A DNA stretch of 62,744 nucleotides, filler included, from a bacterium (GTDB lineage Bacteria; JBDRGX01): the NCBI GenBank assembly GCA_043817485.1. It is 7 parts of 7 records of this genome, joined end to end, with 100 filler letters (N's around TTAATTAATTAA, not from the genome) between each part and the next. Parts side by side here need not be neighbours in the genome. Positions count along the whole stretch, not along the records: positions 33,510 to 57,811 come from JBDRGX010000113.1; 6 more parts are not named here. The stretch is one strand, 5' to 3'. A program made the position numbers and the translations under genes. Shown one piece after another: positions 7,640-59,870 of this stretch; the stretch's first letter is position 1, and the number at the start of each line of letters is the position of its first letter. The notes under the pieces are model-generated. The model was not told the origin of the DNA. It saw nothing but the letters and a program-made list of their open reading frames with translations, and did not search any database.

Positions 7640-7739
7640 NNNNNNNNNNNNNNNNNNNNNNNNNNNNNNNNNNNNNNNNNNNNTTAATTAATTAANNNNN
7701 NNNNNNNNNNNNNNNNNNNNNNNNNNNNNNNNNNNNNNN
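7640..7739. other. Assembly spacer
   Basis: N44-TTAATTAATTAA-N44. Confidence 0.97.
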
Positions 7740-19287: not shown

Positions 19288-19621
19288 TATAAATTATTTT
19301 AATACAGATAATATATTTCAAATAAAATTTATTTAAACTAAATTGCAATTAAAAGAATAGTAATAATTAAAAATCCGAAATTCAAAACAATAAAAAAAAA
19401 TTTAAACTACAACGAACAGGGACAAAGCTACTGTTCTACGATACTATATCAAAATTCGAAACAATGAAAAAATTAAATGGAAAATTTTACTACAATAATG
19501 CCACCCCCTTCAGGGTTAATTCTTTGTTCCCATCCATTTGCTTCGGGGGTTAGAATTATCGGTAGAAATCTTCGTATTTATTTCAAATTGAAAAATTCAA
19601 ATTAAAAATTAAAAATAAATT

Positions 19622-19723
19622 GCCAAAAATTATAATTTTTCATTTCCCATTTTCAATTTATTCTGATGTCCCATTTGGTAAGGACGAATGCTGTGCCCGT
19701 GTTGTTGTAAATGGCAATTTATG
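19622..19723 (-). repeat. Inverted near-identical copy of REP-flank repeat at ~58471-58570
   Basis: Reverse complement reads AATTGCCATTTACAACAACACGGGCACAGCATTCGTCCTTACCAAATGGGACATCAGAATAAAT..AAAATGGGAAATGAAAAATTATAATTTTTG. Confidence 0.85.
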
Positions 19724-19880
19724 GAGACTGTGTCGTAATTAGAAATTTGGCATGAGAAGTATACAACATGTTGTGCCAATATTAGCAATAAATACTATAT
19801 ATGGGATAGTTTTGCCATTAATTATCAATTGTATATATAAAGACTTAAATTAGTTGATATAAAGACTTGACTCTATTCAT
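19724..19880 (+). mobile_element. Left end of GAGACTGTGTC-terminus element with two NrdR-box-like sites, truncated by contig end
   Basis: GAGACTGTGTCGTAA at 19724 matches the TIR of 57571-57687; boxes ATACAACATGTTGTGC (19761) and ATACTATATATGGGAT (19792). Confidence 0.65.
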
Positions 19881-19980
19881 NNNNNNNNNNNNNNNNNNNN
19901 NNNNNNNNNNNNNNNNNNNNNNNNTTAATTAATTAANNNNNNNNNNNNNNNNNNNNNNNNNNNNNNNNNNNNNNNNNNNN
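19881..19980. other. Assembly spacer
   Basis: N44-TTAATTAATTAA-N44. Confidence 0.97.
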
Positions 19981-20144
19981 TTGGCCAAGTAGTCAGAGAA
20001 GTAATTACAAACAATGCAAATAGTAGTGTATATTGGGATGGAAGAGATAATTTAGGAAAAGAGGTAAGTTCAGGAATGTATTTTTATGAAACAATTATAA
20101 ATAATAAAACACAAAATTGTAAAAAAATGTTGATGTTGAAATAA
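19981..20144 (+). CDS. C-terminal fragment of FlgD-Ig / T9SS-like sorting-domain protein
   Basis: GQVVREVITNNANSSVYWDGRDNLGKEVSSGMYFYETIINNKTQNCKKMLMLK*, 49/53 aa identical to the end of 57912..58372. Confidence 0.85.
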
Positions 20145-20161
20145 AAATTTTTATTAAGTAA

Positions 20162-21791: not shown

Positions 21792-21877
21792 GAGACCGTT
21801 TCATAATCATGTGATTTTGTTTTTTTATATACATCTAATTGTAAAAAGTAGTTTTTTTTCAATTAAGACATGGTTTC
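21792..21877 (+). mobile_element. Short MITE-like element (degenerate copy)
   Basis: GAGACCGTTTCATAA...TTAAGACATGGTTTC; interior aligns with 57412-57492. Confidence 0.65.
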
Positions 21878-22015
21878 TTGGGATTAATACAGAAGATGAA
21901 AAAAATCAAGAATATCTACCTACTTTTTCGTCAATGAGAAACAGGTAATCCCAACCATGAAGGGGTGATATTGTTGTAGCATATAATATGTGCGGGAATT
22001 TAGGATTAATTTTTC

Positions 22016-24180: not shown

Positions 24181-25260
24181 ATGAAAAATTATACACCAAT
24201 ATTATTGCCAATAAATAATTTTAAGTGGGATGTTTTTGTTCATTTGATTGGTAAAGCAAATGCAGAGATAGGGCGTTTTGATGGGTTATTGAAAAAAATC
24301 CCAAATCCATCTGTACTTTTGAGCCCATTAACTACAAATGAAGCTGTTTTATCTTCTCGCATTGAGGGAACACAAGCCACATTAAAAGAAGTTTTGGAAT
24401 TTGAAGCTAATCCTCAAAAAGGGACTAAAAAATACGAGGATATTCAAGAAGTTATTAATTATAGAAAAGCATTAAAAGAAGCGATTGATGAAATGGAAAA
24501 ATTTTCACTTTCAACTCGCGTCATTAAAAAAGCTCATAAAATTTTGTTGCAAGGAGTAAGAGGAAAAAATAAAAACAAAGGAAATTTTAGGCAGCAACAA
24601 GTTTTTATTGGAAAACTTGGCGCAAATATTGAACAAGCAATTTATATTCCACCGATTGCAGAAAAAATCAATGATTTAATGTCCAATCTTGAAAAATATA
24701 TTCATAGTGATGATAAAGACTTGCTTATTCAACTTGCTATTATTCACGCTCAATTTGAAATAATTCACCCTTTTATGGATGGCAATGGAAGAGTTGGTAG
24801 AATGTTAATACCATTATTTTTATATTTCAAAAAAGCCATTTTTTATCCATCGTTTTATTTAAGTGAATATTTGGAATCTCATAGAGAAGAATATTACAAA
24901 ACATTGCTTGATATTTCTAAAAATAACAATTGGGAAAATTGGATTAGCTTTTTTCTTCAAGCTGTACTTGAACAAGCCAAAAAAAATATTGAAAAGGCAG
25001 AAAAAATAATTAATTTGTATGAACAGAAAAAACAACGAATAATGGATTTAATTAAATCTCAATTTAACATTAAAATTTTGGATGCACTTTTTGTAATGCC
25101 TATTTTCCAAAGTGAAGATTTTATAAAAATTACTAAAATATCAAAAAGAAGTGTTTTTAGATATATTGGAATATTGGAAAAAAATGGCGTAATATCGTCA
25201 AGTAAAAAAATGAAAAATAAACTTTATTTTTTTAATAAGTTATTAGATATAATTAAATAA
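24181..25260 (+). CDS. Fic-domain protein (N-terminal inhibitory helix, C-terminal HTH)
   Basis: Canonical HPFMDGNGRVGR; SSRIEG inhibitory motif; own promoter TTGACA(24139)-N17-GATAAT. Confidence 0.93.
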   Translation: MKNYTPILLPINNFKWDVFVHLIGKANAEIGRFDGLLKKIPNPSVLLSPLTTNEAVLSSRIEGTQATLKEVLEFEANPQKGTKKYEDIQEVINYRKALKEAIDEMEKFSLSTRVIKKAHKILLQGVRGKNKNKGNFRQQQVFIGKLGANIEQAIYIPPIAEKINDLMSNLEKYIHSDDKDLLIQLAIIHAQFEIIHPFMDGNGRVGRMLIPLFLYFKKAIFYPSFYLSEYLESHREEYYKTLLDISKNNNWENWISFFLQAVLEQAKKNIEKAEKIINLYEQKKQRIMDLIKSQFNIKILDALFVMPIFQSEDFIKITKISKRSVFRYIGILEKNGVISSSKKMKNKLYFFNKLLDIIK

Positions 25261-25374
25261 AATATATGGCACTATGAAAAATTATAATGCCATAAAATAA
25301 AATATATGGCACTATGAAAAATTATAATGCCATAAAATAAAATATATGGCACTATGAAAAACTATAATGCCATA
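25261..25374 (+). repeat. Tandem array, ~3 x 40 bp, each unit palindromic
   Basis: AATATATGGCACTATGAAAAATTATAATGCCATAAAATAA at 25261 and 25301; third copy from 25341 has one substitution and a truncated tail. Confidence 0.95.
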
Positions 25375-25429: not shown

Positions 25430-25529
25430 NNNNNNNNNNNNNNNNNNNNNNNNNNNNNNNNNNNNNNNNNNNNTTAATTAATTAANNNNNNNNNNNNNNN
25501 NNNNNNNNNNNNNNNNNNNNNNNNNNNNN
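25430..25529. other. Assembly spacer
   Basis: N44-TTAATTAATTAA-N44. Confidence 0.97.
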
Positions 25530-33409: not shown

Positions 33410-33509
33410 NNNNNNNNNNNNNNNNNNNNNNNNNNNNNNNNNNNNNNNNNNNNTTAATTAATTAANNNNNNNNNNNNNNNNNNNNNNNNNNNNNNNNNNN
33501 NNNNNNNNN
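33410..33509. other. Assembly spacer
   Basis: N44-TTAATTAATTAA-N44. Confidence 0.97.
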
Positions 33510-56079: not shown

Positions 56080-57369
<1,290 letters not shown>

Positions 57370-57411: not shown

Positions 57412-57492
57412 GAGACTGTGTCATATCATGTAAATTTGTTTTTATATACATAATTGCAAAAAGCAGTTTTTTTTCAATTAAGACACGGTTTC
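57412..57492 (+). mobile_element. Short MITE-like element (81 bp)
   Basis: GAGACTGTGTC...GACACGGTTTC imperfect TIRs; second copy at 21792. Confidence 0.7.
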
Positions 57493-57570
57493 ATTGGTTG
57501 AGACAGAGAGAATAATGAAAAAAGTAGATGAAATTGCTATTATAGAAATTATTTTTAGGGGCAATTCATC

Positions 57571-57687
57571 AGACTGTGTCATAATTCAATTTCACGGCAA
57601 TTGTTTTACAACATAAAGTGGTAGGTTTCCACAAAACCACAATATGTTATGGTATGGATGTCTAGATTTAGAGTTATGACACAGTCT
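57571..57687 (+). mobile_element. 117-bp MITE with perfect 14-bp TIRs and tandem NrdR-box-like sites
   Basis: AGACTGTGTCATAA...TTATGACACAGTCT; preceded by half REP TAGGGGCAATTCAT; boxes at 57606 and 57637. Confidence 0.8.
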
Positions 57688-57811
57688 CATATATGATCAT
57701 TTTAAAAATATATCTACGAATAGAGTTATGTCTTTATATATAATATGATGAGGTGCTGGTAAATTGCAAATATGAGAATGGAGATTTATTAAATTCCCCT
57801 TTATTAAAGGG

Positions 57812-57911
57812 NNNNNNNNNNNNNNNNNNNNNNNNNNNNNNNNNNNNNNNNNNNNTTAATTAATTAANNNNNNNNNNNNNNNNNNNNNNNNNNNNNNNNN
57901 NNNNNNNNNNN
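57812..57911. other. Assembly spacer
   Basis: N44-TTAATTAATTAA-N44. Confidence 0.97.
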
Positions 57912-58372
57912 GTAGTGATAGTGTTTCGATAATAAATACAGCAAATAATAATTCAGTTACAAATATAACTGTTGGAAATGAACCAGTAGCATTGTGTGTA
58001 TTAGAAAACAAGGTATATGTGGCTAATAGTTTAGGTGGAAGCATAAGTATTCTTGGAGATGATGGAAATAATATTAATGGACTTTTGATAAATTCAATGA
58101 ACAATAAAATTTTATCATATCCAAATCCATTTAATCCCGAATGTTATATACCAATAGAAATAACAAACAACAAATCACAAAATATCAAAATAAAAATATA
58201 TAACATACTGGGACAGGTAGTAAGAGAAGTAATGACAAATAATGCAAATAATTCAGTGTATTGGGATGGAAGAGATAATTTAGGAAAAGAAGTTTCATCA
58301 GGAATGTATTTTTATGAAACAATTATTGATAACAAAACATTAAATTGTAAAAAAATGTTGATGTTGAAGTAA
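57912..58372 (+). CDS. C-terminal fragment: YVTN-type beta-propeller repeat + FlgD-Ig/T9SS-like sorting domain
   Basis: SDSVSIINT...ITVGNEPVAL..KVYVANS; YPNPFNP, IKIYNILGQVVR, WDGRD..G..VSSGMYFY. Confidence 0.85.
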
Positions 58373-58384
58373 AATACAAAAAAA

Positions 58385-58700
58385 TTTTCAATTTTCAATT
58401 TTCAATTTGAAAATGAATATAAATGACCAAAAAATGGGAATTTGATTTTTAATTTGTAGGGGCAATTCATGAATTGCCCTTTACAATAACACGGGCACAG
58501 CATTCGTCCTTACCAAATGGGACATCAGAATAAATGTAAAATGGGAAATGAAAAATTATAATTTTTGACAAATTATTTTCAATTTTCAATTTGAAAATGA
58601 ATATAAATGACCAAAAAATGGAAATTGGATTTTAAAAATTTGTAGGGGCAATTCATGAATTGCCCCTACAAACGGCGACACGGCGTTCGCCTCTACAAAA
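58385..58700 (+). repeat. Composite GTAG-family REP cluster
   Basis: ~90-bp direct repeat (58391-58479, 58576-58665) each ending in GTAGGGGCAATTCATGAATTGCCC; perfect 34-bp palindrome at 58639-58672. Confidence 0.88.
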
Positions 58701-59779: not shown

Positions 59780-59870
59780 AAATGAGAATTGGATTTTGAA
59801 AATTCGTAGGGACATCATGAATTGCCCTTTACAACAATACAGTCGCAGCATTTGCCTTTACCAATGGAAC
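59780..59870 (+). repeat. Degenerate copy of GTAG REP + flank
   Basis: GTAGGGACATCATGAATTGCCCTTTACAACAATACAGTCGCAGCATTTGCCTTTACCAATGG vs 58456-58522. Confidence 0.7.

Follow-up and report, generated by a model that had tools for sequence, protein, structure and literature searches.

NrdR-box-like blocks in a small palindromic element of an AT-rich bacterial genome: repressor sites or parts of a transposon end?

Behind an enolase gene in an AT-rich bacterial genome lies a 117-bp non-coding element, and it raises the question whether a mobile element can be read by NrdR, the dATP/ATP-sensing repressor of ribonucleotide reductase (RNR) genes. If this were true, the state of the dNTP pool would bear on transposition or on nearby genes, and the NrdR regulon would have a mobile route for spreading beyond the reductase genes; no mobile element would have been linked to the RNR repressor before. 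A search of the literature for NrdR boxes in mobile elements found no paper on the topic, as judged by title, and a broader one brought up mainly MITE papers in which NrdR does not figure. On the more ordinary reading the element adds another MITE to those of bacteria, which are elements of a known kind.

The window, i.e. the whole stretch of DNA analysed here, is 62,744 bases long. Its seven contigs come from a draft genome or a MAG, and the GC content is about 24%. The contigs are joined by N44-TTAATTAATTAA-N44 at positions 2789-2888, 7640-7739, 19881-19980, 25430-25529, 33410-33509 and 57812-57911. Assembly breaks truncate features near these joins, including both box-bearing copies described below: one contig end (57811) lies close to the 117-bp element and another (19880) close to a second copy that starts at 19724.

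The Pfam scan covered 49 of the 53 ORFs of at least 90 aa in the window; the four omitted are one open-ended ORF and three short ones overlapping longer listed ORFs. The ORFs are housekeeping genes (dnaE, infB, nusA, tgt, hisS, glnA, eno, prs and others), and none of the 49 is a transposase, a ribonucleotide reductase, NrdR or an ATP-cone protein. The top non-self match of the enolase is only 76% identical, while others are about 72%, to Geobacter-like proteins; thus, the protein collection contains no close relative of the lineage. Two contigs open inside paralogous genes (19983-20146 and 58211-58374, DNA 87% identical), and the C-termini of these genes are type IX secretion sorting domains, which suggests an FCB-group bacterium or a neighbouring lineage.

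Structure of the palindromic element

The element and its parts are located as follows.

57571-57687, no strand assigned: 117-bp non-autonomous element (MITE), one long imperfect palindrome according to its terminal repeats and predicted folds
57571-57584, plus strand: left terminal inverted repeat AGACTGTGTCATAA, from motif search
57674-57687, minus strand: right terminal inverted repeat, the perfect complement of the left one, from motif search
57606-57621, plus strand: left subterminal block (box 1), TTACAACATAAAGTGG, offset 35 from the left end
57637-57652, minus strand: right subterminal block (box 2), plus-strand sequence CCACAATATGTTATGG, offset 35 from 57687

Sequence and coordinates bear out the initial annotation of a non-coding element with perfect terminal inverted repeats. 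These repeats are 14 bp long, and on the minus strand a G precedes the right one (GAGACTG...). The sole ORF that overlaps the element (57494-57616) is an unsupported one of 40 aa. The eno gene (56098-57369) lies about 200 bp upstream on the same strand, and the contig ends 124 bp beyond the element. Five matches to the 14-bp repeat with at most two mismatches are found in the window, against 0.32 expected, and none of 100 shuffles reached five.

The element has terminal inverted repeats, a small size, no transposase gene and multiple copies, as is typical of a MITE. That the element belongs to a repeat family, as first proposed, is confirmed by its terminal repeats and by copies both in the window and in distant phyla. 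The only candidate for a target-site duplication at the element is CAT/CAT with a 1-nt offset. REP and REPIN elements, mobilised by RAYT transposases, are short hairpins with a conserved 5' GTAG-type tetranucleotide, often in inverted doublets. This identity was rejected for the 117-bp element, which has no GTAG-type hairpin unit inside, while the neighbouring GTAGGGGCAATTCATGAATTGCCCCTAC hairpins fit the definition; they are the target and not the element.

The two boxes match the NrdR consensus at 11/16 (57606) and 12/16 (57637) positions and start 31 bp apart, and recomputation gave the values first reported. However, the two are not independent. They stand in mirror orientation about the centre at 57629, each 35 bp from its own end, and read in the orientation of the element the right block is CCATAACATATTGTGG. 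In the predicted RNA fold box 1 pairs with box 2 at 13/16 positions, and the other folds agree. The 31-bp spacing is therefore a consequence of the palindrome (117 - 2x35 - 16). What had been called a tandem pair is one subterminal block viewed once from each end: the resemblance to NrdR boxes and the canonical 15-bp linker hold, but the two boxes are mirror halves of a palindrome. The sequence that separates the terminal repeat from the block is nearly unrelated in the two halves of the element.

The predicted RNA fold has an energy of -41.5 kcal/mol (z -6.6; z -6.8 for the other strand), and as single-stranded DNA the element is predicted to form one long hairpin (z -4.7). Both strands thus fold far better than shuffles, and this would agree with a role at the RNA level, where the 117-nt hairpin, co-transcribed with eno about 200 nt upstream on the same strand, would stabilise the 3' end or be cut by RNase III. 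The boxes would then simply be part of the stem, and such a role is compatible with the other readings. For Correia elements, the part of PMC10969869 used here reports that transcripts containing them are cleaved by RNase III. We nevertheless consider this role quite improbable. Any palindromic MITE folds this way, no T-run or terminator-like site is called in either intergenic region, and the block in the second copy, which is not palindromic, is left unexplained.

The boxes compared with NrdR operators

The part of PMC13584703 that we rely on describes an NrdR operator as two 16-bp boxes with a linker of 15-16 bp (or 26-27 bp), 15 bp being canonical. Within a box, strong conservation is seen at C4, A6, A8, T9, T11 and G13, the stretch bounded by C4 and G13 must have an AT content of at least 63%, and single boxes are not bound by NrdR (PMC13584703). 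According to the same part of the source, C4 and G13 are critical in both boxes, although one box may have its G shifted by 1, and a single change of G13 (G44C) abolished binding of the E. coli NrdR. A6 and T11 seem critical there as well, yet A6T is tolerated by the E. coli protein, and the published regex allows [AT] at position 11 (PMC13584703). For S. coelicolor, a 50-60-fold loss upon inversion of conserved GC pairs is given in the portion of PMC9110341 cited here.

In the 117-bp element, box 57606 has C4, A6, A8, T9 and G13 and an A at position 11. Box 57637 has an A in place of the critical G13, and its next G is at position 15. Since T11A in box 1 mirrors the tolerated A6T, the pair has only one clearly disabling change. 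Because of A13 box 57637 fails the published regex, and the list of pairs found by this regex holds none at 57606/57637. An alternative register for box 2 (57634-57649) restores G13 but has a 12-bp linker and A11, and it was rejected. Further, the element is located behind eno and not at the promoter of an RNR gene or nrdR, and the window holds no RNR or ATP-cone gene. With this location and a second box that fails the regex, the proposal that the element itself is an NrdR operator is not upheld.

How common are such boxes at this base composition? Scores of at least 11/16 are found at 167 positions in the window (2.7 per kb) and scores of at least 12/16 at 20, while pairs with both boxes at 11/16 or better number 0-2 at every spacing from 17 to 60. 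At the 11/16 threshold the boxes are thus not more frequent than expected by chance. The published regex matches 418 single sites and gives 23 pairs where shuffles give about 10, and with that many matches at this GC content it carries no weight here. At about 24% GC, hardly any specificity is left in NrdR-box regexes and consensus scores.

The initial annotation also pointed to a second family member with the same spacing of boxes and an offset of 36 instead of 35 bp. This member is present, and its features are listed below.

19724-19880, plus strand: left end of a longer family member, with the terminal repeat at 19725-19738 (one mismatch)
19761-19776, plus strand: subterminal block and first NrdR-like box, ATACAACATGTTGTGC, offset 36, with all six conserved positions
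19792-19807, plus strand: the other NrdR-like box, ATACTATATATGGGAT, which follows a 15-bp linker and likewise has the six conserved positions

Both boxes match the NrdR consensus at 12/16 positions and start 31 bp apart, and the linker (19777-19791) has the same 15 bp as that of the 117-bp element (57622-57636). All rules for box sequence and spacing hold for this pair, with an AT content between C4 and G13 of 75% and 88%. This content is at least 75% in all four boxes, and A6 and T11 are kept in the three boxes other than 57606, the one with A11.

A strict rule that requires all of C4, A6, A8, T9, T11 and G13 gives 25 sites in the window, and no pair other than 19761/19792 lies within 16-70 bp. 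The probability that one or more strict pairs arise by chance in the window is 0.011-0.013 for linkers of 15-16 bp and 0.038-0.040 for all eight accepted spacings, from 1000 shuffles under each of two null models. Matches at the threshold are common in DNA of this GC content; the strict pair is statistically unusual.

In contrast to the 117-bp element the 19724 copy is not palindromic and is unstructured (fold z +0.56). Its first box is 11/16 identical to both blocks at +35 of the 117-bp element, whereas box 19792 is neither a mirror of box 19761 nor homologous to box 57637 (7/16 identical, read by eye). Across the four boxes, also read by eye, positions 3, 4, 6, 8 and 9 are invariant, and positions 11 and 13 each deviate in one box. 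This pattern appears close to the NrdR logo, though the boxes were chosen by that same logo.

The 156 bp before the contig end contain no credible right terminal repeat for the 19724 copy; a MAFFT pairing with 19860-19875 was rejected as right end, as only about 5/15 positions match. In a plasmid collection the 117-bp element has no match, and 19725-19880 has only AT-rich chance matches (E 0.04).

It is conceivable that the family carries functional NrdR operators. The one at 19724 would be intact, and that of the 117-bp MITE would have decayed through the change of one critical base; the repressor would then gate a promoter of the element or transposition, or insertions would spread operators. 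What speaks for this is that 19761/19792, the only strict pair in the window, has the six conserved positions in both boxes and a 15-bp linker and so passes the criteria in the cited part of PMC13584703, and that its first box lies at an offset from the terminal repeat matching that in the 117-bp MITE. NrdR is, according to the same part of that source, present in 77% of bacterial genomes. We still judge these operators to be unlikely. In addition to the G13 lacking in the flagged box 2 and to the lack of weight of the loose regex, the short subfamily (see below) has one block only, and no NrdR, RNR gene or transposase is found among the 49 ORFs. Further, the regulons of NrdR are, in the portion of the literature drawn on here, essentially restricted to RNR genes, with the addition of topA in Pseudomonas. 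In relatives from other phyla (196 kb) a strict pair is absent, with 0/78 ends carrying one; single strict boxes are found at four of these ends and a loose pair at one. Of the claim that the ends of this family are read by NrdR, what remains is that 19761/19792 follows the box rules; the flagged box 2, with its missing G13, does not.

Alternatively, 19761/19792 could be an ordinary host operator, serving a reductase gene or nrdR beyond 19880, with a transposon end that happens to lie, or inserted, just upstream and with the MITE boxes as unrelated look-alikes. This would make use of a pair that passes all box rules and is statistically unusual, and the contig ends 73 bp after its second box, which leaves the downstream gene outside the window. 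Genuine operators overlap promoters directly upstream of RNR genes, as stated in the cited portion of PMC9110341. However, no sigma-70-like promoter is called over the two boxes, and no contig of the window begins with an RNR gene. Moreover, the +36 offset of box 1 and its 11/16 identity to both MITE blocks at +35 point to the element and not to a host promoter. We therefore give a host operator only a small probability.

Insertion sites, other copies and relatives

The surroundings of the two box-bearing copies and the other copies in the window are listed here.

57556-57569, plus strand: left half of a host REP-like hairpin, TAGGGGCAATTCAT, which directly abuts the 117-bp element and is its insertion target
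19596-19723, plus strand: 128-nt repeat ending at the centre of a REP-like hairpin, 93% identical to 58468-58595
57412-57523, plus strand: member of a short subfamily with degenerate terminal repeats GAGACTGTGTCAT ... AAGACACGGTTTC, directly 3' of eno
21792-21904, plus strand: the other copy of this short subfamily, located 23 nt 3' of a yceG-like gene

The left boundary of the 19724 copy is fixed by a paralogous intact site. The homology between 19596-19723 and 58468-58595 stops exactly at the centre of the hairpin, after ...TTTATG, and GAGACTGTGTC then begins. On the minus strand the paralogue 58468-58595 runs on into the intact hairpin GGGCAATTCATGAATTGCCC, and because the hairpin continues there it serves as the "empty site" for the 19724 copy. 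Intact REP-like hairpins are found at 58460-58479 and 58646-58665.

The hairpin family as a whole, (GTA)GGGGCAATTCATGAATTGCCCC(TAC), is represented at 58455-58484, 58641-58670, 59810-59830, 2889-2900, 19708-19723 and 57556-57569. Its members are embedded in larger intergenic repeats, and one contig starts inside such a hairpin.

Only three box-bearing ends are present in the data, and two of them belong to one element. These ends, at 19725, 57571 and 57687 (minus strand), have the terminal repeat with 0-1 mismatch and the block, A[CT]AACAT...GTG, at +35/36; apart from these two features they have only an AAATYT-like stretch in common.

The two copies of the short subfamily are 81% identical over 118 nt. 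They have degenerate versions of the family terminal repeat and an internal A5-G-[CT]-A-G-T8 stretch. There is no pair of boxes in this subfamily: 57412-57523 has a single central ATACAT..TTG block, and the one related block, ATACATCTAATTGTAA, is located at +36 of 21793.

Relatives were collected by a scan of species-representative genomes with a query made of the terminal repeat and a short inner stretch outside the boxes. It returned 68 loci with family termini, none of them from the genome of the window. By manual sorting about 60 were judged family members, while about 8 of the 68 resemble chance or unrelated conserved loci. The family loci are concentrated in one SAR324 MAG (32) and two Thermodesulfobacteriota MAGs (14 and 8), and six single loci with a family-like architecture come from FCPU426, Desulfobacteraceae, Firestonebacteria, Syntrophaceae and two "delta proteobacterium" MAGs. 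In the public genomes 19 complete elements of 139-362 bp could be delimited; the following examples are bounded by the 15-bp ends.

L004, 2001-2139: complete relative
L052, 2001-2244: complete relative
L001, 2001-2158: complete relative
L033, 2001-2145: complete relative

The end of the family, (G)AGACTGTGTCRTAAT, also written (G)AGACTGTGTCRTAA, is about 15 bp long and the same across distant phyla. It may resemble the ends of the IS5 family. Behind this end, at about +25 to +60, the relatives have GTCAT-hairpin modules that are specific to the host, and not the block of the window. Their insertion sites are loops of REP-like hairpins that belong to the respective host.

The flanks of 20 elements, the 19 complete public ones and the 117-bp element, were compared. 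They form inverted repeats (at least 8/9 positions) in 9/20 elements, against 5.7% in shuffles, and typical cases are CCCTCTCCC...GGGAGAGGG or GTCACYCCGG...CCGGRGTGAC. Direct repeats of at least 4 nt flank 8/20 elements, against 3.7% in shuffles, with offsets that vary between 0 and 2 nt. Members of the family are shown to sit in loops of host REP-like hairpins, often with flanking direct repeats of 3-5 bp.

The autonomous element behind the family was looked for, as the initial annotation had suggested, and neither the 49 ORFs scanned in the window nor those examined at the loci yielded a transposase. No second terminal repeat is located 0.6-2 kb away in the 68 loci, many of which end at contig breaks and may for that reason miss an autonomous copy, and no transposase domain is found in 20 + 80 ORFs of the loci (2-kb flanks). 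The 80 are those nearest to the terminal repeats among 153 ORFs of at least 130 aa, and a few of them were entered twice. From the loci, the flanks and the absence of transposase domains it follows that the family consists of widespread non-autonomous elements that prefer hairpin loops.

Rfam gives no match in the window at gathering thresholds and none in 10 loci at E up to 0.1. In the text of the literature the terminal 10-mer has only unrelated primer matches, and it is absent from the main text of a MITE survey (PMC11602168). So far as motif and literature searches reach, the family appears to be undescribed. It is of interest because its 15-bp ends are shared between distant phyla and because it inserts into REP-like loops, and it provides a handle for finding the transposase.

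Possible nature of the subterminal block

What, then, are the boxes? In our view they are probably transposon-intrinsic subterminal sites of a MITE. The 117-bp element would most likely be moved by a transposase acting in trans that recognises the termini of about 15 bp, (G)AGACTGTGTCRTAAT. Each transposon end would have, besides its terminus, a further conserved block at +35/36, and the 16-bp "boxes" would be these blocks. They would probably serve as inner sites to which the transposase or an architectural protein binds, or else form a small cruciform, and would correspond to the subterminal hairpins that the relatives have at +25 to +60. With the ends of the 117-bp element back to back, the two blocks would face each other 31 bp apart. 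The likeness of this element to an NrdR operator would then be incidental, with the A at G13 of box 2 and the position behind eno.

Such a site is favoured because the element's own symmetry explains the flagged boxes, one of which is disabled for NrdR, because the block is kept in three ends and in an altered single form in the short subfamily, and because relatives carry a palindromic module at a comparable place. As no transposase using these ends was found, it is by inference that we assign a transposase-binding role to the block. Against a transposon-intrinsic site stands box 19792, which neither palindromy nor homology explains. Either this box is a coincidence of roughly 1-4%, or the end is recognised by NrdR or by a different protein whose sites recur at a distance of three helical turns.

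One could also think of the block as a bending site for a nucleoid protein (IHF or HU) that aids the assembly of the transpososome. The 19761 block contains CAA-N4-TTG, which would agree with the IHF consensus core. Block 57606 (CAA-N4-AAG) matches it poorly, patterns of this kind are frequent at 24% GC, and even though the part of PMC10969869 used here describes a bona fide IHF site in a Correia element, a bending site seems very improbable to us.

Transposon-intrinsic sites of this kind can be compared with what is known from other systems. IS1397 and ISKpn1 (IS3 family) and the IS110-family elements ISPpu9/10 and IS621 insert into the loops or centres of REP sequences, and they are autonomous elements with known transposases. 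The target is the same kind of REP-like hairpin loop or centre as that of the 19724 copy, the 57571 element and their relatives; however, the ends are different, and in the present family only non-autonomous elements are seen. For the plant MITE Emigrant and its partner Lemi1, the transposase is said to bind subterminal as well as terminal repeats, with several motifs and with binding demonstrated. The likeness to our family is a conserved inner motif at each end besides the terminal repeat, but Emigrant is eukaryotic, and here binding is suggested by conservation in three ends.

The Correia/NEMIS elements of Neisseria resemble the family in being non-coding, about 100-150 bp long, bounded by terminal inverted repeats, intergenic, able to form long hairpins and present in many copies, as far as the cited part of PMC10969869 describes them. 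According to this part, they can also carry a site for a host protein (IHF) and promoters. They differ in their termini, while the present family targets the loop of a REP-like hairpin, has ends common to several phyla and showed no autonomous partner among the loci examined here. The operators of NrdR, in the passages of PMC13584703 that bear on them, are like 19761/19792 in having two partly palindromic, AT-rich 16-bp boxes with six conserved positions and a 15-bp linker. The candidate pairs differ from them in lying inside a mobile element, and the flagged pair differs also in the lack of G13 in box 2 and in its place downstream of eno.

Two further repeats were observed at contig ends. A 22-nt repeat, TATAAAGAC[AT]T[AG]ACTCTATTC, is found at 19857-19878 and, inverted and 91% identical, at 57718-57739, i.e. 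near both contig ends that come after the box-bearing copies; its TATAAAGACTT part is present twice at 19836-19871. Just 3' of a Fic-domain gene (24181-25260), beside another contig end, there are three tandem 40-nt units (25252-25374) that are 95-100% identical, each with a small hairpin (ATGGCAC...ATGCCAT).
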